DNA from: Longimicrobiales bacterium
Lineage (GTDB): Bacteria > Gemmatimonadota > Gemmatimonadetes > Longimicrobiales > Gaopeijiaceae
Length of the DNA stretch: 64,000 bases
Direction of reading: 5' to 3'
NCBI GenBank assembly: GCA_965226375.1
Contig: CBDDCX010000008.1
Location: 1,440,001 to 1,504,000 of the forward strand
Part shown: positions 12,844-26,709 of the stretch, one piece after another
Position numbering within the stretch: position 1 is the first letter of the stretch
Layout: every line of letters starts with the position of its first letter
The notes under the pieces: generated by a model
What the model was told of the DNA's origin: nothing
Seen by the model: the letters and a program-made list of their open reading frames with translations, nothing else
The model's database searches: none
Made by a program: the position numbers and the translations under genes

Positions 12844-15800
12844 CTAGGCCGCCGAACCACCCACCTGCAGAGCGTCCTGGAACTGCACCCCGACAATCGT
12901 GCTCACTCCGGGCTCTTCCATAGTGACGCCGTAGATCCAATCAGCGGCTTCGATGGACCTCGGATTGTGTGTGATGATCACGAACTGAGTCTGCTTCTTG
13001 AATTCCTGGAGCAGTCGAATGAAGCGACCGATGTTGTTCTCGTCGAGCGGGGCATCCACCTCGTCGAGAACGCAGAACGGACTCGGCTTGACCAGGTAGA
13101 TCCCGAAGAGCAATGACAGTGCCGTCAGAGCCCGCTCTCCACCCGACAACAGATCGATTCTCTGGGTTTTCTTTCCATGGGGAGAGGCGTGCACTTCGAT
13201 CGGTGATTCCAGCGGATCCTCTGGATCTTCCAGCCAAATGTCGGCCTCGCCTCCCTCGAACAGTCGCTGGAAGGTGGACTGGAAGTTTTCACGGATCTTC
13301 TCGAACGTGCCCTCGAAGAGGTCGATGGCGGTCTCATTGATCTGGCGGATGGCCGACTTGAGGTCGTTCCTTGCGGCCATGAGGTCTTCACGCTGCTCAC
13401 TGAGGAACTCGAGCCTGGCACTTTCCTCGGCATGCTCTTCGACGGCGAGCATGTTGACCAGTCCGATGCGATCCAGCTTGATCACGATGTCCTCGAGCTC
13501 CGCCTTCAGGGCTTCGGGCGTACCCTCCACCGGCTCGGCTTCTTCTAGGAGGCGCTCCAGTGGACGACCCCACTCCCCCTCGAGGCGCTCCTGAATGAGT
13601 CCGATGCGACCGGAGACCTCCTGTCTCTCCAACTCGAGCTGATGACGTCGGTCTACGGCTTCACGCTCGGCGCTGCGTGCCACGCGCGCCGCCTTATCCG
13701 CTTCAGCCAGGGCCTCGGCCACGTCGGACAACACCTTGGTTCGCTCCGCGTACACCGTGTCGGCTTCATCACGTTCACCGAACAGCCGCTCCGTCGCGAC
13801 GCGGCCATTTTCCTGGAGCGTTTGGACGGTGTCCACCTCTTCCCTCAGGTCTTTTTCCTCGACATCGAGCTCACCTAGTCGATCCTCCCCGGTGGACATC
13901 TCGCGGGTGAGATCTTTCAGGCGCTCGGCCACTCTTGCGACGTCCGCCTCCAGGCGAGCCAGGGTCACCGACAGCCGGGTCTCCTCTGCCCTAGCCTCTT
14001 CCCACTCGTCCTGGACGCGGACGAGGACCTCACGCGCTTGCTCGCGCTCGGCACGGATCGCACCCTCCTGTCCCAGAAAGCCCTCGCGATCCTCTCCGGC
14101 CGTCTGTGCTCGTTCCAGCGCCCTGGTCCGGGCAGCCTTGGCTCCCTCCAACTGCCTCGCGAGCTCGTCTCGATGGGTGTCAACTCGGGCTCGGCGGTCT
14201 ACCTGAGCCGCCATCTCGGCGCTGGTCCGCCTCAACTCGTCTTCGGCTTCCAGGAATGAGACGCGTGCGGCTACGAGAGCGGCCTCGGCCGCTTCCGCCG
14301 CGGCATCCGCGTCTTCGACCTCCCTCCTTGAAACGGTCGCCTTGCCCGCGGCCTGACCCAATGTCTTACGCAATGACTCAACGCGAGCCCTCCGCTCGAG
14401 CATGCCGGAGGTCCCCGACGGTCTGCCGATCTTCACAAAGCCGCGGGGATCGCGAACCATGCCCGTAATCGACAGCAGTGAGCGGTCTGGATCTGGACTA
14501 CTCGCGACAGCATCATCGGCCTCGACCAGATCCGCCTCACCGAGCAGTGCTTCCACCCAGGGAGCTCCCTGCCCTTTGGCTTTGACGGACTTCAGCAGTG
14601 ACCCACCCGCGTGATCGGGCACACGATCGAGGGGAAGCAGCACCAGCCCGCCATCCTCGGTCCACTCTTCGGCAAACCAGCGAACGATACGATCGACGCA
14701 AGCACCATCTCGCACCACGAGAGCCTGTGCGAGCGGGCCCAGGTAGGTCTCCACGGCCGCGGCGACCTCACTGGCAGCTTCCATGAAGTCGAGTAGGGAT
14801 CCCACCACGTCGGCGTCTTCAAGAGCGAGTACGGCCTGGATGGCCGGGTCGACACCCTCGTGCCTGAGGCCGAGAGCTTCCAAGGCCGAGACCTCGACCT
14901 CCATGCCCTGAACGATTCGAGCGGCATCGAGGTCCCTCAGCCTCGCCTCGTCGAGTGCCTTACGGCGGCCCTCGAGATCCTCCCGAGCGGTGTCGAGGTG
15001 TTTCCGGGCATCCTCCACCGCCACCTGGAGACCATCGAGGCGGGTCGTGAAGAGATCACCCTGCGACTCAAGGTCGGTCAGAACGGTGGAGGCGTCACTC
15101 AGTTCCACCGTTACCCGCTCGATGCGGCGCTCGAGCTCGGCGGCCTGGCCCCGGGCCGCTTCGGCACCGCCCTCGAGCTGTGCGCCCTTTCGGACCAAAT
15201 CGCGCTCCCGGTGCTCCGTCTCTTCAACCCGATCGCGCGCTTCCTTCAGGCGCGCCTTCACGGCCGCCGACACTTCTGCCTGGCTAGTGGCATCCGCCCG
15301 GATCGCCTCCAGCTTTCCTTCCTGCCCATCGTGATTCGCCTGAAGGTCGGTCGCTTCGACCCTGACGTCGCCCAAACGCTTGGACCAGGCCTCACGATCA
15401 TCGTCGATCTGACTCAGCCGCTTTTCGGCGTACCCTCTACGCTCTTCTGCCACGGCCAGGTCGCGCTCCCACTCGACGAGTTGGGTCTTCACCCGGTCGA
15501 GCACCTCCGCAGCTTCGGTCCTCGCCCGTTCCGCCGTCACCTCATCGAGCCGTAGCTTCTCATAGGTGGCCTCGGCTGTCCGAAGCTCGGCCACCATGCC
15601 CTGACCCGTCTTACGGTCTCCCTCCAAGACGGCATCCAGCTCCTTCAGGCGCGCCGAAAGATCCGCCAGGTCGTTGCGAACTACAGCGACCTCGACCGAC
15701 AACCGTCGTTCCCGAAGAGACTTGTATCGCTCGGCCTTGCCCTTCTGCCTAGCCAGCGACCGTACCTTGGTCTCGACCTCGCCGATAACGTCTTCCAGGC

Positions 15801-16368
15801 GAGTGAGATCGTTGTCGGCGTGCTCCAGCCGACGAAGCGCGGCCTTACGACGATCCTTGTACTTGCTGATTCCGGAGGCCTCTTCGAAGAGTTGCCGTCT
15901 CTCCTCCGCGCGATCGGAAAGAATCGCATCGATCATCCGGGTCTCAATCACCGAATAGGCGTTCGCGCCAAGTCCGGTATCGCGGCAAAGATCGACTACA
16001 TCACGCAGACGACAGGTCGCCCGGTTTAGCGAGTAATCACTCCCCCCATCCCGATATATCGTGCGGCCGATCTCGACCTCATCATACGCGACCGGAAGCA
16101 CTCCGTCCTCGTTGCTCACGACCATGGTAACCGCGCCCCGGTTCACGGGGCGGCGATTCAGTGAACCCTGGAAGATCGCCTCCTCCATCTTGCCACCACG
16201 GACGGCGGAGGGACGTTGCTCGCCCAATACCCAGCGAACGGCGTCGCTGATATTCGATTTTCCACAACCGTTGGGCCCGACGATCGCGGTGATGCCCTCG
16301 TGGAAGTCGATGACGGTGGAGTCTGCGAACGACTTGAACCCGTGGAGGCGAAGAGATCGGAGTTTCAT
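12844..16368 (-). CDS. smc: Chromosome segregation protein SMC
   Basis: GFKSF, GPNGCGKSN, long coiled coils, LSGGE, LDEVDAPLD. Confidence 0.98.
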   Translation of the reverse strand: MKLRSLRLHGFKSFADSTVIDFHEGITAIVGPNGCGKSNISDAVRWVLGEQRPSAVRGGKMEEAIFQGSLNRRPVNRGAVTMVVSNEDGVLPVAYDEVEIGRTIYRDGGSDYSLNRATCRLRDVVDLCRDTGLGANAYSVIETRMIDAILSDRAEERRQLFEEASGISKYKDRRKAALRRLEHADNDLTRLEDVIGEVETKVRSLARQKGKAERYKSLRERRLSVEVAVVRNDLADLSARLKELDAVLEGDRKTGQGMVAELRTAEATYEKLRLDEVTAERARTEAAEVLDRVKTQLVEWERDLAVAEERRGYAEKRLSQIDDDREAWSKRLGDVRVEATDLQANHDGQEGKLEAIRADATSQAEVSAAVKARLKEARDRVEETEHRERDLVRKGAQLEGGAEAARGQAAELERRIERVTVELSDASTVLTDLESQGDLFTTRLDGLQVAVEDARKHLDTAREDLEGRRKALDEARLRDLDAARIVQGMEVEVSALEALGLRHEGVDPAIQAVLALEDADVVGSLLDFMEAASEVAAAVETYLGPLAQALVVRDGACVDRIVRWFAEEWTEDGGLVLLPLDRVPDHAGGSLLKSVKAKGQGAPWVEALLGEADLVEADDAVASSPDPDRSLLSITGMVRDPRGFVKIGRPSGTSGMLERRARVESLRKTLGQAAGKATVSRREVEDADAAAEAAEAALVAARVSFLEAEDELRRTSAEMAAQVDRRARVDTHRDELARQLEGAKAARTRALERAQTAGEDREGFLGQEGAIRAEREQAREVLVRVQDEWEEARAEETRLSVTLARLEADVARVAERLKDLTREMSTGEDRLGELDVEEKDLREEVDTVQTLQENGRVATERLFGERDEADTVYAERTKVLSDVAEALAEADKAARVARSAEREAVDRRHQLELERQEVSGRIGLIQERLEGEWGRPLERLLEEAEPVEGTPEALKAELEDIVIKLDRIGLVNMLAVEEHAEESARLEFLSEQREDLMAARNDLKSAIRQINETAIDLFEGTFEKIRENFQSTFQRLFEGGEADIWLEDPEDPLESPIEVHASPHGKKTQRIDLLSGGERALTALSLLFGIYLVKPSPFCVLDEVDAPLDENNIGRFIRLLQEFKKQTQFVIITHNPRSIEAADWIYGVTMEEPGVSTIVGVQFQDALQVGGSAA

Positions 16369-18941
16369 TGGGGCAGTCGGCCTCTACGTTCGGTCAGACG
16401 TACGCCACCCAGGTCGTTCGAGCGAAGGAGTCGTCCCATCGCGGCGGCCTGGAACTCGTCCACGAAAGCGCCACCATACACGCGCATTGCCGTGGTCTCG
16501 TCAGGATAACTGACTTCGAGGATGTGAGTCGGGATGGAGAGAGCGGCTAGCGACTCTACTCTGCCGGCCGCATCCGCATCCTCGGCATACTCCCCGAAGA
16601 AGAACGAGTATCTCGCTTCCTGAACCGTCCACGTGGTGGGGTCGAGTCGATCGAGAACCTCGGCCAGAGGCTCCTTGAGATCGTCCGCCTCCACCGCGCT
16701 GAAGGCCGGGCCGGCGAGCAACGCGTATTGGACGCCTCCGTCTACCTCTGTAACGGTCACAAAGAACAAGAACTCGGGAAGTCTCGCCCTGAGGGCCTCC
16801 ACGGTGCTCAAAGCCGTTTCCATATTTCGCCAAGCCTCGACCGCGAGCACGTGCGTTATCACGGGCGTCACCGGCGTCGGCCCCGGTAGCTCCACGGGGG
16901 CGGGTACGGCGGAGCGCACCCTGTCCGGTGGCGTGATCCCGGGGATGTTGACGAGGCCGAAATACGCGACGCCGAGGCCTCCGCCACCGACAATCAGTGC
17001 GGTCGTCCCGGCCACCATCAGTTGCCGGAGCCTTGCCCCTCTCTTTCTTCGCCGCTCCAACTCCTCCAGCCCCGACATTCTCGCCGGTGGACCCTCGTCC
17101 GCGACAACCTCGATGTCTGGCACCGTATCCTCGGCGGGAGGCGTGTCGGCAGCGACCTCCATGACCTCCGCGGCCGCATCCACGGCAATGGATCCGTCCG
17201 CAGCATCCACGATCGGCACGTCATCACTGAGTTCAGGGGGGCCGGCCTCAAGGTCGGCTGCGTCGTCACCACCGAGAGGCACGTCTCCCGCGGCCCCGGC
17301 AAGGTCTTCCTCAGCGGCCTGCTCCTCCTCTTCGGCCACGGCACTGGCCTCTACCTCGAGGCCTTCGTCTCCGAAGCCGAAGTCGTCGGCACCCTCCATC
17401 TCCTCTTCCGACTCCCCACCCAGCGCGACTGCATCGGCGGCCAAGTCCATGCCCTGGTCGTCCGGCGCGTCTTCAAGATCGAATCCGGAGCCTGTCTCGA
17501 ATCCGGCCATATCCAGACGGGCCGCCTCGGCTGCAGCCGCCACAGCTTCCTCATCCATTTCGACGTTGGATCGGGTCACCCCGTCCATCATGTCCGCCTC
17601 TTTGTCGGCCGCCTCATCCGCGCTCACTGGGGCCTCTGGACCCGCCGCCGCCGGTTCGTCGGGTTCCGGGGGGGACACCTCGAGCGACTCGACCTCCGAG
17701 GGCTCCATCTCCAAGGCCGCCACATCCAGGTCCAGGCCCGCTTCCTCCTCGGACTCCTCCTCCGACGGAGCGTCCTCTTCAAGTGAGGCCGCCGACTCGT
17801 CGGGTTGAGTCACTACCGGCTCGACCTCGTCAGGGACCTCGGGCGGGGGCGTGGGATCTTCCGTCTCGGCTGCGCTGGAAGCGTCGTATTGTGATCCTGC
17901 CATGCCGTCGAAGTTGAAGGCGCCGGAGTCATCCGTCTGGTCTGCAGCATTTCCCGTGGACTCGGGAAGCTCTTCCATCGAGAAGAGTTCCCCATCACCG
18001 GCGACCTCCTGTGTGACCCCGGCCGGCGTTTCATCAACACTGACAGGTGGCTCGAGCTCTAACTCCGGCTCCGACCCCAACTCCGGCCCGGACTCCAACT
18101 CCGGCTCCGACTCAGACTCAGACGTCGGGTCCAACTCCGGCTCGGGCGTTGAATCTGCCTCGAACTCGGCTTCTTGATCGTCATCCAGGTCAGAGACCAT
18201 CTCTACCTCCGGTTCCGGTTCCTCTTGGAGCACCTCTGCAACCTCCAGCTCCGCATCGAACCCATGCTCGGATTCAGGATCTAGCTCAGTCGTCGAAGCG
18301 AGTTCAGACTCGGGTTCGGACGTCCTGTCTACCTCGACGTCCATAACCGCTTCGGGGCCAATCACGGCAAGGACTCGTTCCGAAGCCGCACCCAGGATCG
18401 CTCCCCCCGCGTCTCCGCCCGCCTCCGAAACGAGGATGATTCCTGCGGCCTTGTCGAGCAGGGCCCCGGCTCCGGTGGTGGAAGCCGACAGATGCAAGAC
18501 CAGCACCGCCCCGGCCTCCTGGAAGCCGCCAATGACCGTATCCCACTTGGGGTGCGCCAATACCTCTTCAGCGTCAGCCACCGGGGTTCCTGCAGGCGCA
18601 AGGAGAAAACCACCGTCGACGGGCCGGGCTACCCGCTTCACCGAAGCCCCATAAAGCATGACGTCGGACAGGCCTTCATCGCCTGCGCCGTCAACCAGTT
18701 CATGGAGAACCGGATCCTCGAAAGACGCATCTGCCAGAAGGACGCTCCGGCCCCTGGCAGCCCAGCCCCGAGCGAGGAGCAGGCTCGCACTCGCCCCCCA
18801 GTGTCGTTCGATTTCCGGTGTCACCCAGACGACCACACAAGCCGGAGTGGAGTCGGCAGAATCAAGCGCGCCGGCAATCGGCTCCGGGAGGTCCCCACCG
18901 GTCGGATCAATGGACTGCCAGGCTGGAATATCCGGACTCAT
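16365..18941 (-). CDS. Membrane-anchored SPOR-like protein with degenerate MinD/BY-kinase-like N-domain and long acidic linker (paralog 1)
   Basis: N-term LARGWAARGRSVLLAD..PVLHE..EGLSD; Glu/Asp/Pro-rich middle; one TM segment; SPOR-like C-term (MRVYGGAF); stop overlaps smc start; start could be 18986. Confidence 0.7.
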   Translation of the reverse strand: MSPDIPAWQSIDPTGGDLPEPIAGALDSADSTPACVVVWVTPEIERHWGASASLLLARGWAARGRSVLLADASFEDPVLHELVDGAGDEGLSDVMLYGASVKRVARPVDGGFLLAPAGTPVADAEEVLAHPKWDTVIGGFQEAGAVLVLHLSASTTGAGALLDKAAGIILVSEAGGDAGGAILGAASERVLAVIGPEAVMDVEVDRTSEPESELASTTELDPESEHGFDAELEVAEVLQEEPEPEVEMVSDLDDDQEAEFEADSTPEPELDPTSESESEPELESGPELGSEPELELEPPVSVDETPAGVTQEVAGDGELFSMEELPESTGNAADQTDDSGAFNFDGMAGSQYDASSAAETEDPTPPPEVPDEVEPVVTQPDESAASLEEDAPSEEESEEEAGLDLDVAALEMEPSEVESLEVSPPEPDEPAAAGPEAPVSADEAADKEADMMDGVTRSNVEMDEEAVAAAAEAARLDMAGFETGSGFDLEDAPDDQGMDLAADAVALGGESEEEMEGADDFGFGDEGLEVEASAVAEEEEQAAEEDLAGAAGDVPLGGDDAADLEAGPPELSDDVPIVDAADGSIAVDAAAEVMEVAADTPPAEDTVPDIEVVADEGPPARMSGLEELERRRKRGARLRQLMVAGTTALIVGGGGLGVAYFGLVNIPGITPPDRVRSAVPAPVELPGPTPVTPVITHVLAVEAWRNMETALSTVEALRARLPEFLFFVTVTEVDGGVQYALLAGPAFSAVEADDLKEPLAEVLDRLDPTTWTVQEARYSFFFGEYAEDADAAGRVESLAALSIPTHILEVSYPDETTAMRVYGGAFVDEFQAAAMGRLLRSNDLGGVRLTERRGRLPQ
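18061..18114. repeat. 3 x 18-bp imperfect tandem repeat (E/P/S-rich peptide)
   Basis: aactccggctccgacccc / aactccggcccggactcc / aactccggctccgactca. Confidence 0.75.
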
Positions 18942-19088
18942 CCGCGCACCCTTCGCATGGTGAAAAAACCGCGCCGCGACGGGCACGATGCACCAGCAGA
19001 ACGGAGTCGTCGCACCCCCCGTTTTGATGGCGGCAAAGGTAACCCACCCTCCAAGAGAGGTCCACAGGAGGCCCGGACACGCCGGCCT

Positions 19089-20600
19089 TCAGCGCACATA
19101 CCGGCCTATCCTCGGCCCGAGTATCGGTACGCCTCCAAACGCAGTGTCCAACTCCGTCCTCATGACGTCCGCCTCCGCGGGGCTCTGATAGGCCCCTGCG
19201 TACACCCGAAAGCCCGGGGCCGTCGAACCGGCAACCTCGAACACGTAGGCCCCTATACCCGCGTTACCGATTTCCGCTACCCGACCAGTCGCCGCCTCGA
19301 TCGACTCGAACCCTCCAAAATCGAACGCGAGCGGGGTCGGCCGGACGATCCAACGGGCGCCGTCATCGCCCGTCAGGGTTTCCGCCAGAGATTCACGGAG
19401 GCGCTCTGCCCCGAGGGAGTCCACCGATGGGCCTGCCAGCACCCGATGATACACGCGATCCGCCACCCTCACGGGAGCGACAATGAACAACAGGTCCGGA
19501 CGTCGCTGGGCCAGCCTCTGGGCATGTCGCCCAGCGGCCTCGCGCGTCTGATAGGCAGCCAGTGCCAGTGAATACGCCTGTTGCGGCTCCGGCGGCGAGG
19601 GCTCGGCAGACACCGATGTCTGGAAATCTTCAGTAAGCGCTACCGGAACCGTCTGGTCCGCGGGAACGAGCATCCTCTGCAACAGAAACAGAGCCCCGAG
19701 CCCTACCAGCGTCCCCACCAGAGCCGGCCGCCAAGGGATCCGCCGCCGATCGGGCTCGGTCCCGGTCTCAAGCTTGGCCTCGGTCTCAAGGGCAACAGCC
19801 TCAGTGTCAGTTTCTGGCTCAGCCTCTGTCGTAGGAACGGAGTCAGTCCCTGGCTCAGTTTCAGTTTGCGGCTCTGCCTCAGTCGTAGGCTCCACCCCAG
19901 TCTCAGGCACACGTGCTGATCCAGCCTCGACCACCTCCGTGCTAGCCTCGGCCTCCACCTCACCCGCCATCTCGATCGACCCCTCCGTCGGCGGCGGTGG
20001 CCCTCGATCCTCCAAAAGACCCCACACCTCGTCGAGAGCGAAAGACTCGGCCACCCACTCCGCTTCGGTCGGATCGCCCGCAAAAAGGAGCGTTGCGGTG
20101 CTCCGAGCTATCAGAGCATCCACGCCCGGGAGGTCCGCGGGCACGTAGAAGAGGACCCTGGCCTGAGCACTCCCCACCTCCTCCACGAAGGCCGACCACG
20201 CATCGCTCAAAGTGATTTCAGTGGGATCCTCGACCGGTGTACCGACGGACACGAACTGAAATCCTGGTGCTCCGGCTTGTTGCGCCACCGATGGCATGGA
20301 CGCCTCGCGAAGGACGAGGTCAACCACGCCTACCGCGTTCGGCAATCCCAATGTCTGGTGAAGCACCGGCTCGGTGAGGGACAAATCGAAGAGGATGACA
20401 CGGTGACCCTGATCGGACCAAGCCCGTGCGACCGCGATCGCAGCGGCCGGGCTCCAGGACGATCGGGCGACGTCCGGCGTGACAATAAGGGTGACGACGC
20501 CTCCCCCGGCGCCTGAGACGAGTGCGCCGGGTGCCGCGATCTCCGGTAGATGACCGGAGTCCGGGTCAAACGGGTATAGGCGCGAGTGGCCCCGATCCAA
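19089..20600 (-). CDS. Membrane-anchored SPOR-domain protein with degenerate MinD/BY-kinase-like N-domain (paralog 2)
   Basis: VARAWSDQGHRVILFD..PVLHQ; TEAEP-rich linker; TM segment; two SPOR-like repeats (YHRVLAGP, FRVYAGAY); TTG start with AGGA upstream. Confidence 0.72.
   Translation of the reverse strand: MDRGHSRLYPFDPDSGHLPEIAAPGALVSGAGGGVVTLIVTPDVARSSWSPAAAIAVARAWSDQGHRVILFDLSLTEPVLHQTLGLPNAVGVVDLVLREASMPSVAQQAGAPGFQFVSVGTPVEDPTEITLSDAWSAFVEEVGSAQARVLFYVPADLPGVDALIARSTATLLFAGDPTEAEWVAESFALDEVWGLLEDRGPPPPTEGSIEMAGEVEAEASTEVVEAGSARVPETGVEPTTEAEPQTETEPGTDSVPTTEAEPETDTEAVALETEAKLETGTEPDRRRIPWRPALVGTLVGLGALFLLQRMLVPADQTVPVALTEDFQTSVSAEPSPPEPQQAYSLALAAYQTREAAGRHAQRLAQRRPDLLFIVAPVRVADRVYHRVLAGPSVDSLGAERLRESLAETLTGDDGARWIVRPTPLAFDFGGFESIEAATGRVAEIGNAGIGAYVFEVAGSTAPGFRVYAGAYQSPAEADVMRTELDTAFGGVPILGPRIGRYVR
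19801..19889. repeat. Two ~35-bp imperfect repeats, 54-bp period (PTTEAEP)
   Basis: tcagtgtcagtttctggctcagcctctgtcgtagg vs tcagtttcagtttgcggctctgcctcagtcgtagg. Confidence 0.6.
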
Positions 20601-21137: not shown

Positions 21138-21596
21138 CTACTCCTCCCCAGCGCGCTCCACACGTACATCGACTTGGACTTCGACCTGGCTATGGAAACG
21201 CACGGAAACCTTGAATTCTCCGAGGAGCTTCAGCGGCTCTTCGAGAATGACCGTGCGGCGGTCCACCTCGAAGTCCAATTCTCCCTGGTTCAGCTGGTCG
21301 GCGATGTCGGCGTTCGTGACCGAGCCGAACAACTTGCCGTCATCCCCCGCCCTGACATGAAACACGAGTGATTTTCCGTCGAGCTGGGCGGCGCGACGAC
21401 GTGCCTCGAGGTAGTCGTGCCTGGCCTTCTCCTCAGACCGCGCGTGCTCCTCCTCCAGCCTCTTCAAGTTGGCATCACTCGCCTGGTACGCGAGTCCTTG
21501 GGGGATCAGGTAGTTGCGCGCATAACCGGGCTTTACGTCGATGATGTCACCCTGACCTCCAAGCGCCTCTACCGTCTTCCTCAAAATGAGCTTCAT
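21138..21596 (-). CDS. rplI: 50S ribosomal protein bL9
   Basis: MKLIL..LG..GDIIDVKPGYARNYLIP, GKLFGSVT. Confidence 0.97.
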   Translation of the reverse strand: MKLILRKTVEALGGQGDIIDVKPGYARNYLIPQGLAYQASDANLKRLEEEHARSEEKARHDYLEARRRAAQLDGKSLVFHVRAGDDGKLFGSVTNADIADQLNQGELDFEVDRRTVILEEPLKLLGEFKVSVRFHSQVEVQVDVRVERAGEE

Positions 21597-21609: not shown

Positions 21610-22554
21610 TTACGTGTCAGTCGTACCGCCGGACAACACGTCGGCCTTGGCTCGTAGGTCGAGCCAAGTATCGCCGACGCCGATGACCAGCGCCCCCATC
21701 GTCAAAACGGGCGCAAGGAGCAACATCCCGAGCGCCATCACCAAGAAACCGAACAGCGAAATACCGCCGTTGAAAAACAGAACCACGGCAACGCCCCGGA
21801 CCGCGTATAGCCCCCCCATGAACACGACGGCGTTGGTCCCCACCCGTGTCCACGCGTCACCTAATCCGAGCACTATCAGCACCAGTCCCACCAGCAATAG
21901 CCACACGAAGTGGTCGTTGAACCGGAAGTCCTTGAGCGGTCCAAGTCCCTGATCACTCCCCGCGGCGAGTCGCACATATCCCCACCAGGCGACACCGAGT
22001 CCCGCCAGCGACGACAGGCCCAGAAGCGCCGGGAATAGCCTTCCCTGAAGGGCCGCGGTCTCGAACGCGGTGTTGACCATCTCCGTCGGGATCTCCACGT
22101 CTGGCTTCCAGGCAGCCACCAAGCTCATGGCCAGGCTGACACTCTTCATGACACCCTCGGAAACGAGCCAATCCACCATGGCCCAGGAGCCCGGCTGGAC
22201 GGCCAGGAGCACCGCCACGAGCCCAAAGGCCCCACCGACGGCTCCGAGAGCCCTCGGAAAAAAGCGGCTGTCGGGCGACCGCATGGTCAGGAACACGAAC
22301 CCACCCGCCAGGATGATCGTCCATCCTCGCTCCAGGTACCAGAGACCTCCACGGGCCGTGGCCCCCAGCGTTACCATCACGGCCAATACGGCAGCCACCA
22401 CGGTCGGGAACCGGCGGGCACCGAGTACGGCGGCGAGCACCAGGAAGGGCACCGCCACCAGTACGCCGGCGCTGACGACCGACAGCCCCATGGTGACGAG
22501 CAGAAGCGCGGCAGCGCGCAGCCACGTGCGCTCGAGCCGCGTCGGGGAATCCAA
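21610..22554 (-). CDS. DUF2232/YybS-family membrane protein
   Basis: Multi-TM protein with C-terminal GVGDTWLDLR; typical position between rpsR and rplI. Confidence 0.8.
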   Translation of the reverse strand: MDSPTRLERTWLRAAALLLVTMGLSVVSAGVLVAVPFLVLAAVLGARRFPTVVAAVLAVMVTLGATARGGLWYLERGWTIILAGGFVFLTMRSPDSRFFPRALGAVGGAFGLVAVLLAVQPGSWAMVDWLVSEGVMKSVSLAMSLVAAWKPDVEIPTEMVNTAFETAALQGRLFPALLGLSSLAGLGVAWWGYVRLAAGSDQGLGPLKDFRFNDHFVWLLLVGLVLIVLGLGDAWTRVGTNAVVFMGGLYAVRGVAVVLFFNGGISLFGFLVMALGMLLLAPVLTMGALVIGVGDTWLDLRAKADVLSGGTTDT

Positions 22555-22575
22555 GAGATCGTGCTCCGCGGAGAC

Positions 22576-23229
22576 CTAGACCTCGTGGTCCCGTAGGTAT
22601 GGGATCAACGCCAGATACCGAGCCCGCTTTATGGCCCGCCCGAGCTGCCTCTGAAAACGAGCGGTGACCTTGGTCGTTCGCTTCGGCAAGATCTTACCCT
22701 GCTCCGTCATGCACTGAGAAAGGGTCGAGACGTCCTTGTAATTGAGAAGCTCGATGACCGGCCCTTCCATCCGACGACGCCGGCCGCGGCCCCCGGAAAA
22801 CTCTGGGGGTCTCTGCCGCCTGACGGCCCCTTCCTCATCCTCGGGCGCTTCCTCCTCAGGAGGCGGACCGTCATCCTCGTCCTCATCATCCTCGCTGATG
22901 CGGACCGGCCGCTCACCAAGGATGGATCTCCCGGTCGTAGGCTCCCCGTCGTTCAAGACCACGAGATGCCGCATGAGCTCAGGATCAAGCTTCAGAATTC
23001 GATCGAACTCGGGGAGGCCTTCGGAACCGGCGCGAACTTGCGCCACCACGTAATAGCCCGCCTTCTGCTTCCGCACGGAGTAGGCCATCTGACGGACGCC
23101 CCAATGATCGACGGCCACGACTTCTCCGTCACTGCCGGTCACGAGGAGATGGAACTTCTCGAGCTTCTTGTTTACCGCATCTTCGTCGAGCGTAGCATCG
23201 AAAATGTAGACGATCTCGTACAGCCGCAT
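22576..23229 (-). CDS. rpsF-rpsR: Fused 30S ribosomal proteins bS6-bS18 (single 217-aa ORF)
   Basis: N-half MRLYEIVYIF..WGVRQMAYSVRK..GYYV..LMRHLVV is bS6; C-half NYKDVSTL..TEQGKILPKRTT..QRQLGRAIKRARYLALIPY is bS18; no stop between them. Confidence 0.88.
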   Translation of the reverse strand: MRLYEIVYIFDATLDEDAVNKKLEKFHLLVTGSDGEVVAVDHWGVRQMAYSVRKQKAGYYVVAQVRAGSEGLPEFDRILKLDPELMRHLVVLNDGEPTTGRSILGERPVRISEDDEDEDDGPPPEEEAPEDEEGAVRRQRPPEFSGGRGRRRRMEGPVIELLNYKDVSTLSQCMTEQGKILPKRTTKVTARFQRQLGRAIKRARYLALIPYLRDHEV

Positions 23230-23235
23230 GGTATG

Positions 23236-23288
23236 TCTCCCACGGTCCGCATGTGCAACGGGCCCCGCCACAGGGGCGGAGCGGGATG
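23236..23288 (-). promoter_or_regulatory. Putative S6:S18-binding rpsF leader RNA
   Basis: Minus strand TCCC..GCCCC-TGTGGC-GGGGC-CCG..GGGAGA: inner hairpin, unpaired CCG, outer stem pairing the SD; -10 box TATATT at 23297-23302. Confidence 0.6.
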
Positions 23289-23335
23289 AGCCAAGTAATA
23301 TAGGCCATGTGGGGGGGTTTTGTACCCCTGGGCCA

Positions 23336-24532
23336 CTAGGACATTTCCTGCTGAAGAGCAAGGACGAGCTCGGGATACCGGGCAAAAGCCCAGCGGGCCT
23401 CCTCCACATCGAGACGCTCCCGATTCGTGTGTGCAAAGCGCTCCTCACCCGGAGCGAATCCCACCGTGGGGATTCCGAAAACACCTCGGCTCCAACCACC
23501 GTCCGTGGCAAACGTCCAGGGACGTACCGCGGCCGGGCCCTCTCCCGCGCGCTGTCCGACCGCAGCAGCTGCAGCCAGGACCAGCGGGTCGAGCGGATCC
23601 ATGAGGAAGCCAGGCGTAAAGAGGCTCCGATCGTGTGCAATTCCCGTGTAGGCAGCCTGTCGCTCCTGCGCCATCGAGACCGACACGCTGAAGCCGTCCG
23701 GGAGCTCGCCCAGTCCACGCGTCACGGCGTCTCTTACACGTGACGTCATGGCCTCTTCGTCCGTCCCGGGCAGGACCCGCCAGTCCAGGACAACCGTGAC
23801 CCGGTCGGGGATGACGTTGCGGCTTTCCGGCAGGACGTCCACACCGGTCGCTACCAGGCTCGAGGTACCGAGAATCGGATCCTCAGGCTGATGCGTGGCC
23901 AACTCCTGCACGGCCCCGAGCACTTGCGGGACCAAGTCCAGAGCGTTGTGGGCACGGTCCGGAGCCGAAGCGTGGCCGGCGAGGCCCCGCAGCACCACCT
24001 CGACCTCACCGCGGCCTCGATGCCCGATGCAAATGTCGCCGTGTGTCGATTCGCCGATCACCACGACGCCGGGCTGGACGCCCCCAGACTCGAGCAGGTG
24101 CTTCATGCCCAGACCACCGCGCTCCTCGAAGACGGTGTGCGCCACAATCACGTCTCCCGCGGCACGGCCGGCCAGGGCGGCGGCGGCGTACGTCTGCAGG
24201 GCCAGGGGCCCTTTGATATCCATGGAGCCACGCCCATGAAGAAACCCCTCGGCGACGTCCCCACCGAAGGGTGGGTACTCCCACTCCGCATGGTCGCCTT
24301 CGGCCACCACATCGGTGTGGCAGTTGAGCAGTACGGCCGGAGCGGCTCCGCTTCCCCGAACACAAGAGATGACGTTGCCCACCTCGTCGCGTCGCACGTC
24401 CTGCAGGCCCAGGGCTTCCATCTCGCTCAGAATCCGCTCAGCTACGTCGCCTTCCTGACCAGAAGGCGAGGGGATGCGGATGAGGTCCTGGGCAAATGCC
24501 AGGGCGTTCTCGAACGTTGGATCTTTCGCCAT
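23336..24532 (-). CDS. M20/ArgE/DapE-family metallo-hydrolase
   Basis: HTDVV, HGRGSMDIKG, FEE, GE, GHAS and AHT metal-site motifs. Confidence 0.88.
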   Translation of the reverse strand: MAKDPTFENALAFAQDLIRIPSPSGQEGDVAERILSEMEALGLQDVRRDEVGNVISCVRGSGAAPAVLLNCHTDVVAEGDHAEWEYPPFGGDVAEGFLHGRGSMDIKGPLALQTYAAAALAGRAAGDVIVAHTVFEERGGLGMKHLLESGGVQPGVVVIGESTHGDICIGHRGRGEVEVVLRGLAGHASAPDRAHNALDLVPQVLGAVQELATHQPEDPILGTSSLVATGVDVLPESRNVIPDRVTVVLDWRVLPGTDEEAMTSRVRDAVTRGLGELPDGFSVSVSMAQERQAAYTGIAHDRSLFTPGFLMDPLDPLVLAAAAAVGQRAGEGPAAVRPWTFATDGGWSRGVFGIPTVGFAPGEERFAHTNRERLDVEEARWAFARYPELVLALQQEMS

Positions 24533-24591
24533 CGCTACTCGGGCCCGGCCGGCGGCCGGCCGGACCCCCTCAATCGAACAGCTTGGACACC

Positions 24592-26709
24592 CTACCCAAA
24601 GAGGCGGGCAACCCAGCCGATGAGACCGGAAACCTGGCCGTCGACGTTGATCTCGTGAACACGGACGAACCACGGTGCGAGCACGAGAGAAACGACGGCC
24701 ATGAGCTTGATGAGGATGTTCAAGGATGGACCGGACGTGTCCTTGAACGGATCGCCCACCGTGTCCCCTACGACAGCAGCCTTGTGGGGCTCGGAGCCCT
24801 TCCCGCCATGGGCTCCGGCTTCGATGAGCTTCTTGGCGTTATCCCATGCGCCCCCGGCATGGGCCATGAAGAGCGCCATGAGCACGCCGGTAACCGTAGC
24901 ACCAGCCAAGAAACCGCCCAGTGCCTCTACGCCCAGGAAGTAGCCCACCACAACCGGCGAGATGATCGCGGTCACTCCGGGAATAATCATCTCTCGTAGG
25001 GCAGCATCGGTGGAAATCGCCACGCAACGTGCCGAATCCGGCTTGGCGGTCCCGTCCATGATGCCCGGGTTCTCTCGGAATTGTCGCCTGACCTCCTCGA
25101 CCATGCCCTGAGCGGCCTTCCCCACCGCGGTCATGGTGAGGGCGGCGATGAAGAACGGGAGCATGCCACCGATGAAGAGGCCGATCACCACGATCGGATT
25201 CACGAGATCGATGCCCGTCTCGGACAACCCGACCTTGGTGGCGTACGCCGAGAACAGCGCCAACGCCGTGAGCGCCGCTGAGCCGATGGCAAAACCCTTG
25301 CCCTGGGCTGCGGTCGTGTTGCCGATGGCGTCGAGAGAATCGGTGATCGCCCGAGTCTCCGGTCCCAAGCCGCTCATCTCGCTGATACCGCCCGCGTTGT
25401 CGGCGATGGGTCCATACGCGTCCACGGACATGGTGACACCGACGGTGGCCAGCATGCCGACCGCTGCGATGCCGATGCCGTAGAGTCCGGCCGACGAGAA
25501 GGACGCGAAGATCGCGACACAGATCAACAACATGGGGATGGCGGTCGACTCCATACCCACCGCGAGCCCGGTGATGAGGTTGGTGGCCGCGCCCGTCTTG
25601 CTGGCCTCGGCGATCTTTCGTACGGGCCTGGAAGACGTGTAGTACTCGGTGACGAGCCCGATGGCTACGCCCACCACCGTCCCAGCGACGATGGCGTACC
25701 ACGGACCCATGGCCGGATACGTCTGGCCTCCCTCGACCATCTGGAGGTCCAGCGCACGAACGACGAAGAACATGGCCGCCAAGAAGAGGGCCGCCGCAAT
25801 GAACGTGACGTGACGCAGGGCCGCTGCCGGATCGGTACGTTCGAGCGCCTTCATCATCCCGATGCCCACGAGAGAAGCTACCAGACCCACCATCACGGTC
25901 ACGATGGGCAGCGCCACGGCGTTTCCAACATTGCCGGCCAGCGCGGCCGAACTGGCCGCGATGGCGATCGTAGCGATGACCGAGCCCACATAGGACTCGA
26001 AAATGTCTGCCCCCATGCCCGCCACGTCACCGACGTTGTCGCCGACATTGTCGGCGATGGTAGCCGGATTCCGAGGATCATCCTCGGGAATACCAGCCTC
26101 CACCTTACCCACCAGGTCCGCACCGACATCGGCGGCCTTGGTGTAGATACCACCGCCCACGCGGGCGAAGAGGGCGATCGAACTGGCCCCCATGGCGAAC
26201 CCGGAAATGATCTCGGCGAAACGGAGGTGCTCCGCCGCACCGATGGCCGACGCCCCGAAAAACCAGTAGAGCACTCCGATGCCCGCGAGACCGAGGGCGG
26301 CGACGGAAAGTCCCATCACCGCGCCTCCGAAGAACGCTACCCGCAGGGCCTTACCTGCGCCCTCCTCGTTGGCCGCAGCCGAGGTACGCACGTTCGCGCG
26401 GGTCGCAGCCGTCATTCCGAAGAAACCGGCCATGACCGAGCAGAGAGCTCCCACCAGATAAGCCAGGGCCGTCTGGCCCGAAACCGCCCACGCCAAGAGC
26501 GCCGCCACCACCACCACGAAGACGGCCAGCATGGAATACTCTCGACGCAGAAAGGCCATGGCCCCTTCGTAAATCTGGTCGGCCAGATCCTGCATCGCCT
26601 CGCTCCCGGCGGGCTGACTCTTCATGTAGCGATAGATGATCCCCGCCACGGCCAGGGCTATCAGGCCAAGTGCCCAGGACCAGCTTGCGAACGTCACGAA
26701 TTGGCTCAT
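24592..26709 (-). CDS. hppA: Membrane-bound K+-dependent (probably Na+-translocating) pyrophosphatase
   Basis: [45 protein letters not shown] (Ala = K+-dependent type); DIFESYVGS. Confidence 0.95.

Follow-up and report, generated by a model that had tools for sequence, protein, structure and literature searches.

A single-chain fusion of ribosomal proteins bS6 and bS18, with a zinc-free bS18 half, in a family of Longimicrobiales

Results and Discussion

One Reading Frame Encodes bS6 and bS18

Ribosomal proteins bS6 and bS18 form a textbook pair and are normally separate chains of the small subunit. In the window (the whole stretch of 64,000 nucleotides of Longimicrobiales DNA analyzed here), a single open reading frame on the minus strand runs from an ATG at 23229 to a TAG at 22576, has no internal stop and carries both proteins (Table 1). 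An initial sequence-only reading had proposed a 217-codon frame holding a complete bS6, a linker and bS18, and the follow-up bears this out, with the strand being minus. Profiles for both domains matched the one protein above their cut-offs: Pfam Ribosomal_S6 (PF01250) at residues 4–91 (83.5 bits, cut-off 27), Ribosomal_S18 (PF01084) at residues 162–209 (70.6 bits, cut-off 21), TIGR00166 for bS6 (77.8 bits, cut-off 42.9) and TIGR00165 for bS18 (71.2 bits, cut-off 38.75). The Pfam and NCBIfam limits place bS6 at about residues 1–92 and bS18 at about 159–213.

The genome of the window (G000, 90% complete) gave no bS6 or bS18 match besides the fused gene, and bS18 was matched once in each of 48 genomes of family f1, the Longimicrobiales family to which G000 belongs. 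All three ssb matches in G000 lie elsewhere and none falls between the two halves, as the sequence-only reading had stated; the linker sequence that it quoted, the ATG within it and the homopolymer runs at 22790–22809 are likewise as it described them. Downstream, the gene order is DUF2232, rplI and rsfS. Between rsfS and an SMC-like gene (12844–16368) lie two tandem open reading frames of 873 and 503 amino acids (16365–18986 and 19089–20600, both on the minus strand); by eye, the two look alike at the N-terminus, and each has a long acidic middle part, a hydrophobic segment and a C-terminal domain.

TABLE 1. Features at and around the fused rpsF-rpsR gene, in window coordinates.
Feature	Position	Strand	Remarks
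M20 peptidase gene	23336-24673	-	directly upstream of leader
-10-like hexamer TATATT	23297..23302	-	directly upstream of leader; TATAcT-like words in many relatives, by eye
Putative S6:S18-type leader	23238..23286	-	H1 (UCCC with SD GGGA), hairpin H2, short family-specific H3, CCG bulge 23245-23243, SD GGGAG 23241-23237
Fused rpsF-rpsR gene	22576..23229	-	217 aa
bS6 domain, residues 1-93	22951..23229	-	pLDDT 88-96; VIA-align Z 15.6, rmsd 1.9 over 95 residues to 5o5j_F
Conserved bS6 C-terminal extension, residues 94-108, EGEPTxGxSI	22906..22950	-	also in free bS6 of split kin; pLDDT 84 then 64
Acidic linker, residues 109-139	22813..22905	-	predicted disordered; length varies
Motif PPEF-x-G-x-G-RRRR-x-EGP, residues 141-157	22759..22809	-	replaces bS18 basic N-tail and CxxC knuckle of split kin
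Internal ATG, Met154	22768..22770	-	start codon not conserved
bS18 core, residues 158-217, zinc-free (C-)	22579..22758	-	pLDDT 86-96 over 161-210; VIA-align Z 9.7, rmsd 1.7 over 60 residues to 5mmj_r
DUF2232 membrane protein, next operon gene	21610..22554	-	downstream in 38/51 fused and 21/29 split loci with enough flank
rplI (bL9), operon gene	21138..21596	-	32/32 fused and 22/22 split loci with enough flank

Authenticity of the Fusion

The homopolymer runs of the linker raise the question of an assembly or base-calling artefact, which the sequence-only reading had already weighed and set below a real fusion. In each of three DNA studies, one contig spans all of the 1001-nt stretch; these contigs differ from it by 3, 4, and 5 substitutions and have no gaps. 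A further contig from an RNA library spans the linker and its homopolymers (22762–22940) with 2 substitutions and no gaps, at a depth of 3.2 in one study and with a source that could be DNA. These independent contigs were drawn from 4 of 24 listed sequencing runs. Single-base indels in the PPEF stretch are known from 2 of 201 assemblies (G141 and G163), where they are most likely assembly errors, but they destroy the fusion rather than create it, leaving a C- bS18 without a start of its own. As 185 genomes share the fusion and independent assemblies show it without gaps, the artefact explanation is refuted, and the Rosetta-stone fusion originally proposed is a genuine in-frame fusion.

Distribution Within Gemmatimonadota

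Far from being separate in all close relatives, the two genes are fused in 185 of the 201 family f1 genomes searched (150 stop-free rows, 19 loci read directly and 16 confirmed separately; three of the 185 end at a contig edge yet span the linker). Only two genomes, G099 and G106, are truly split, and 14 are undecidable or defective: the two indel assemblies, one with an N gap, five at contig edges, one G093 contig and five without a match. That contig (G093:C9, locus L084), from a 60%-complete genome, carries an rpsF-ssb-rpsR locus with 24% identity and a lower G+C content and is probably a contaminant.

The 12 loci read from the two sister families are all split. Among 83 genomes listed of the 125 matched there, 80 have bS18 in an open frame no longer than 153 residues, and the other three proved split on reading. 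In a phylum sample of 301 genomes, 16 of the 150 matches listed had long open frames, and the 15 of these that were fetched were all split. None of the inspected genomes from the sister families or from elsewhere in Gemmatimonadota showed the fusion. These split-side tallies include the unpublished genomes G037, G056, G260, G271, G313, G319, G407, G489, G508, G597, and G598, on which no conclusion hinges (the G313 locus is one of the 45 split loci with a zinc-binding, C+ bS18 discussed below). The suggestion that the fusion is possibly lineage-specific thus holds in that it is typical of its lineage, but not in the sense of exclusivity, for the same architecture occurs in other phyla (see below). 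The start codon of rpsF is GTG or TTG in all 12 sister-family loci (L044–L053, L057, L058) and mostly ATG in family f1, both split members included.

The Linker and the Products of the Gene

Across 56 fused loci, counted after removal of two duplicate rows of the window's own locus, the distance from the end of S6 to the YKD motif of bS18 ranges from 58 to 201 residues (median 70.5) with a median net charge of −16.5, and the largest fused proteins reach 345 residues. The free bS6 of split relatives terminates in a run of Asp and Glu, and the acidic linker appears to have expanded from this ancestral tail. Linkers of 143–201 residues, rich in Ala, Glu, Asp, and Gly, are found in L077, L078, L079, L080, and L083 (genomes G147, G214, G073, G125, and G082). 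At the end of the linker, PPEF is present in 40 of the 56 loci, and PPEF or a P-x-x-F/Y variant in 52, leaving four with neither; P141, G149, R151–153, and G156 are invariant among 31 aligned sequences. In the genus that comprises L041, L066, and L081, the linker is short and lacks PPEF.

The ATG in the linker could in principle yield a second product, a free bS18 made from Met154 beside the full-length chain. The codon at this position is ATG in 20 loci and GTG in 7, so that 27 of 56 would permit initiation, and some in-frame start within 25 codons with a Shine-Dalgarno (SD) energy of −5 or better exists in 8 of 56. In the remaining 29 loci, by contrast, codon 154 is no start; in 25 of 56 the 25 codons ahead of the YKD motif hold no ATG, GTG, or TTG, and 11 have no start codon anywhere in the linker. 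The claim that the linker ATG lacks an SD proved right: pairing there with the anti-SD of G000 itself is −2.8 kcal/mol, compared with −7.3 at the true start, and is about as weak as at random internal ATGs (median −2.6 to −2.8), while rpsR in 44 split C+ loci is preceded by energies of −5.6 to −12.1. Initiation at 154 would also remove the invariant RRRR tail. A second product from an internal start is unlikely on these comparisons, and the specific proposal of Met154 as a dual start very unlikely; translation from one start is the reading that we carry forward.

Alternatively, the fusion might be translated whole and then cut in the linker, for instance after the Phe of PPEF, to give mature bS6 and bS18. 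The conserved PPEF at the end of a disordered linker, itself not ordered in the structure model, would suit such a site, and its context (Phe, a small residue and a basic run) loosely resembles the Prp cut site of bL27. A candidate protease gene is also at hand, as an M20 peptidase lies upstream in 23 of 52 fused loci and in 0 of 25 truly split loci with flank (three apparent split matches were assembly-defect loci and do not belong to the truly split set). This gene is nonetheless absent from more than half of the fused loci, and no M20 enzyme is known to act as a site-specific endoprotease; its position is probably family synteny. A Prp family match was found in 0 of 5 genomes searched, one of them 100% complete, with a control search positive in 3 of 14, and PPEF itself is missing from the four loci noted above. 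We consider processing into two mature proteins improbable and retain the uncut chain.

Predicted Structure and Ribosomal Role

An AlphaFold model built with 102 sequences had an overall pLDDT of 78 and a pTM of 0.71, with both domains near 90 and residues 109–151 below 50; with 31 sequences the bS18 half fell below 50 and the pTM to 0.46. Compared with the canonical bS6:bS18 heterodimer (PDB 1G1X, 5O5J, 7JIL), the fusion has both folds and the RNA-reading Lys and Arg residues, as well as the basic N-tail, the acidic bS6 tail and the operon place before DUF2232 and rplI. It differs in that the canonical pair is two chains, whereas here one reading frame joins them through a 58–201-residue linker with the new PPEF motif. 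Fold searches returned no solved chain covering both domains among the top 50 rows of each.

Made from one start, the protein would adopt the usual S6:S18 pairing within a single chain from which the acidic linker loops out, and its contact with the 16S central domain would match that of the normal heterodimer. Being the only copy, the fused protein is presumably part of 30S subunits, probably as an intact chain, in which the two halves may dock in the canonical geometry. The 1:1 stoichiometry that the sequence-only reading took to be covalently fixed follows if the chain stays intact. As a selective cause of the fusion, fixed stoichiometry is no more than a possibility, because split ancestors already had abutting or overlapping rpsF and rpsR and a heterodimer-sensing leader. 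Both the components and their probable functions are canonical; the data do not point to a new kind of ribosome.

In Bacteroidia, bS21, bS18, and bS6 sequester the anti-SD sequence (PMC9976891). The same three proteins are present in G000, together with an intact anti-SD, but G000 differs from the Bacteroidia platform pocket in using SD sequences no differently from its split relatives. Of 913 G000 starts, 399 (44%) have SD-like pairing at −5 or better, whereas among 2219 internal ATGs the share is 24% (p 6e-31). The split genomes G099 (33/62) and G051 (25/64) show no significant difference from G000, in a comparison made with crude start picking over 0.31 Mb of G099 and 0.40 Mb of G051. With SD sequences enriched at starts, an occlusion of the Bacteroidia kind was rejected for G000.

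Loss of the bS18 Zinc Knuckle

None of the 56 distinct fused loci retains CxxC or CxxH in bS18. Among 49 truly split loci, 45 have both motifs (this count includes the G093 contaminant) and four have neither. These four (L104, L114, L115, L118) belong to other Gemmatimonadota families and are split yet zinc-free; knuckle loss therefore does not require fusion. A genome-wide zinc sparing was considered for G000 and rejected, as bL31, bL33, uS14, bL36, and bL32 are all C+ (5/5). The loss of the zinc site is therefore specific to bS18.

As a side observation, G007, another genome of the fused family, encodes a Cys-free bL31 and a one-Cys uS14 about 660 nt apart (G007:C1:3382258-3383313; L156, L161), which are its only matches. 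Both proteins are C+ in G000 and three relatives, and the G007 pair appears to be a further lineage-level zinc-sparing replacement.

The C- bS18 described in PMC9976891 likewise lacks CxxC and has an aromatic residue, corresponding to Phe192 here, where C+ proteins have His. The fused bS18 is, however, the sole copy and no zinc-starvation paralogue beside a C+ gene, and it is part of a longer chain; the C+ state of the other zinc ribosomal proteins tested in the window's genome is a further difference.

The zinc-free half could have been acquired by horizontal replacement from another lineage, an explanation that leaves the fusion real and concerns only the origin of its second half. Its best PDB sequence matches are C- proteins of a Gammaproteobacteria type. 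In a tree of 57 columns, with 4 of the 16 rows from outside the family dropped by a motif anchor, the fused bS18s cluster in one clade (99/99) whose stem is long (0.47). The same tree places that clade, weakly (73/83), among Gemmatimonadota, which speaks against replacement. So do the C-terminal tail, which resembles that of split family member G106, and the mean identities, which with free Gemmatimonadota bS18 reach 0.61 and are no lower than with the other fusions (0.44–0.59). Change in place is the likelier origin on this evidence, with replacement holding a small residual probability. On the branch that carried such in-place change, the knuckle would have been lost and the freed N-terminal stretch rebuilt as PPEF, a Gly-rich segment and RRRR. 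Tethering to bS6 may have made the bS18 zinc knuckle dispensable.

Leader RNA and Possible Promoter

The rpsF start is preceded by a putative leader of the S6:S18-binding type. A three-helix model fitted to 34 aligned leaders pairs 96% of cells, with two-sided changes in 6 of 16 pairs; its covariation score was reached by 0 of 500 shuffles, and slid controls gave 33–52%. As the structure was drawn from these same, related sequences, the controls flatter the model. RNAalifold recovers the same helices. Covariation is found mostly in H2, rather than in H1 or H3: the three core pairs of H1 with the SD are kept in all 34 leaders with a single two-sided change. The CC of the bulge is invariant (34/34). 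Folding of the single sequence gave a structure unlike the comparative one (z 0.40), and an Rfam scan of 22400–23500 (E up to 5) matched no ribosomal leader, returning four chance snoRNA matches.

The published S6:S18-binding motif places CCG in the bulge that separates a stem from a hairpin (PMC3854524) and has the SD within H1 (PMC3895269). The window's leader shares with these its place directly upstream of rpsF, the CC(G) bulge and the SD in H1, and differs in that H2 and the bulge are separated by one more short helix, CCGU..ACGG; its ligand would be one chain, and it had no Rfam match. The extra helix is found in family f1, both split genomes included, and is absent from the sister-family loci seen. 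Two residues of bS18, K60 and R63, are needed for leader binding according to PMC3854524. An ungapped alignment of the bS18 half to solved bS18 equates them with K201 and R204 of the fused protein, which are invariant among 31 aligned sequences. Surplus fused protein would thus be expected to bind the CCG-bulge leader of its own mRNA and hide the SD, a putative autorepression that predicts a one-chain repressor for the S6:S18 leader. The hexamer TATATT upstream may mark a promoter; a consensus promoter scan returned 0 sites.

Origin of the Fusion in Family f1

In an RpoB tree of 24 genomes, obtained by a quick search, all 16 fused family members group together with the split genome G099 as their sister (SH-aLRT 98; 99 for the family). 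Split G106, of which RpoB is only a fragment, was left out, and one row called fused, G062, has sequence only as far as the PPEF motif at a contig end. Because of this position of G099, the fusion in family f1 appears to have a single origin within the RpoB sample. The bS6 tree also groups the family (85), with G099 and G106 nested weakly (82) beside one fused row.

The split loci suggest how the genes were joined. In 41 of 44 split C+ loci the gap between rpsF and rpsR is −4 to +6 nt, and in 14 of 44 the two genes are in frame. Both G099 and G106 have an rpsF stop (TAG), one codon and then the in-frame ATG of rpsR; loss of the stop codon is therefore the simplest route to the fusion, and a likely one. 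Their bS18 begins with a Pro-Pro pair ahead of the knuckle, resembling the fused motif. The ancestor of nearly all of family f1 would then have lost this stop once, the change being possibly near-neutral at first and locked in after decay of the rpsR start, its SD and the knuckle. Either knuckle loss or fusion may have come first on the family branch.

Taken as a whole, we regard it as probable that this is a natural single-chain bS6-bS18 that arose once by stop loss, is translated from one start, functions as the canonical pair, represses its own synthesis through the leader and lost its knuckle on the same branch. An obligate ribosomal heterodimer would thus exist in a family-wide single-chain version, and extant relatives display the condition that immediately preceded fusion. 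To the sequence-only reading the analysis adds the knuckle loss in fused bS18, the S6:S18-type leader and the varying length of the acidic linker with its new conserved motif PPEF, and the gene fusion is tied in a testable manner to the C+/C- switch of bS18.

S6-S18 Fusions in Other Lineages

The S6-S18 architecture is not unique to family f1 and recurs in other phyla. A profile search of 1.84 billion representatives gave 22,550 matches, and the best 150 included 54 two-domain proteins, 6 of them from family f1. The ESM Atlas holds fusion clusters of 90 and 88 members, in which Pseudomonadota are commonest, one of 55 members from Absconditibacteriota, and Gemmatimonadota clusters of 65, 162, and 55 members. 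The other natural fusions have the same domain order as the window's protein, to which they are about 23–44% identical, and differ from it by unrelated linkers without PPEF. Two predicted structures, one of a distant fusion from the ESM Atlas and one of a Gemmatimonadota fusion, superpose with a TM of 0.82 over 160 residues. Non-family fusions scatter in the bS6 tree, and because of this and of the unrelated linkers the data point to repeated origins of the fusion.

Three singleton fusions (P0129, P0135, P0138), each without the knuckle, have a bS6 that groups with other Gemmatimonadota families and are possible further origins inside the phylum. The unconstrained bS6 tree suggests that they are independent of the family f1 fusion; an AU test on bS6 (92 rows, 99 columns) did not reject the family f1 fusions and these three as one clade (p 0.195). 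In 301 class genomes, the 150 matches listed (420 more are unlisted) included no stop-free full-length match to a fusion of the P0138 type outside family f1.

Among the 48 non-family two-domain proteins in the best 150 matches, 38 were complete by our filter; none of these has CxxC or CxxH, and one Cys is kept in 8. Free bS18 of proteobacteria and Bacteroidota is often already C-. The support for a general link between fusion and knuckle loss is weak, because many non-family fusions look proteobacterial or Bacteroidota-like, a small number resemble errors of assembly or gene calling, and 12 of the 17 looked up are singletons at 90% identity. It is conceivable, and we offer it as a tentative and rather doubtful extension, that S6-S18 fusion is a recurrent route by which a tether replaces the stabilizing job of the zinc knuckle, with PPEF and RRRR behind the acidic loop forming in family f1 a new lineage-specific contact of the 30S platform near the mRNA exit. 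If so, the split, zinc-binding genomes G099 and G106 would keep the exact pre-fusion state and the whole path could be reconstructed.

A full-text literature search, judged by titles and abstract openings and with subscription journals outside its scope, found no paper describing an S6-S18 fusion. The words "fusion" and "fused" are absent from the main text of PMC3353972 and PMC7782861, whose supplements could list one. Databases do carry two-domain names, as automatic labels rather than descriptions: [quoted passage not shown] and "Multifunctional fusion protein" in the ESM Atlas, and "ribosomal protein S6/ribosomal protein S18" at JGI. Seven of eight JGI-named fusion matches and one NCBI name bear an S6-only label, and such labels can make rpsR look missing and marker-gene sets miscounted.
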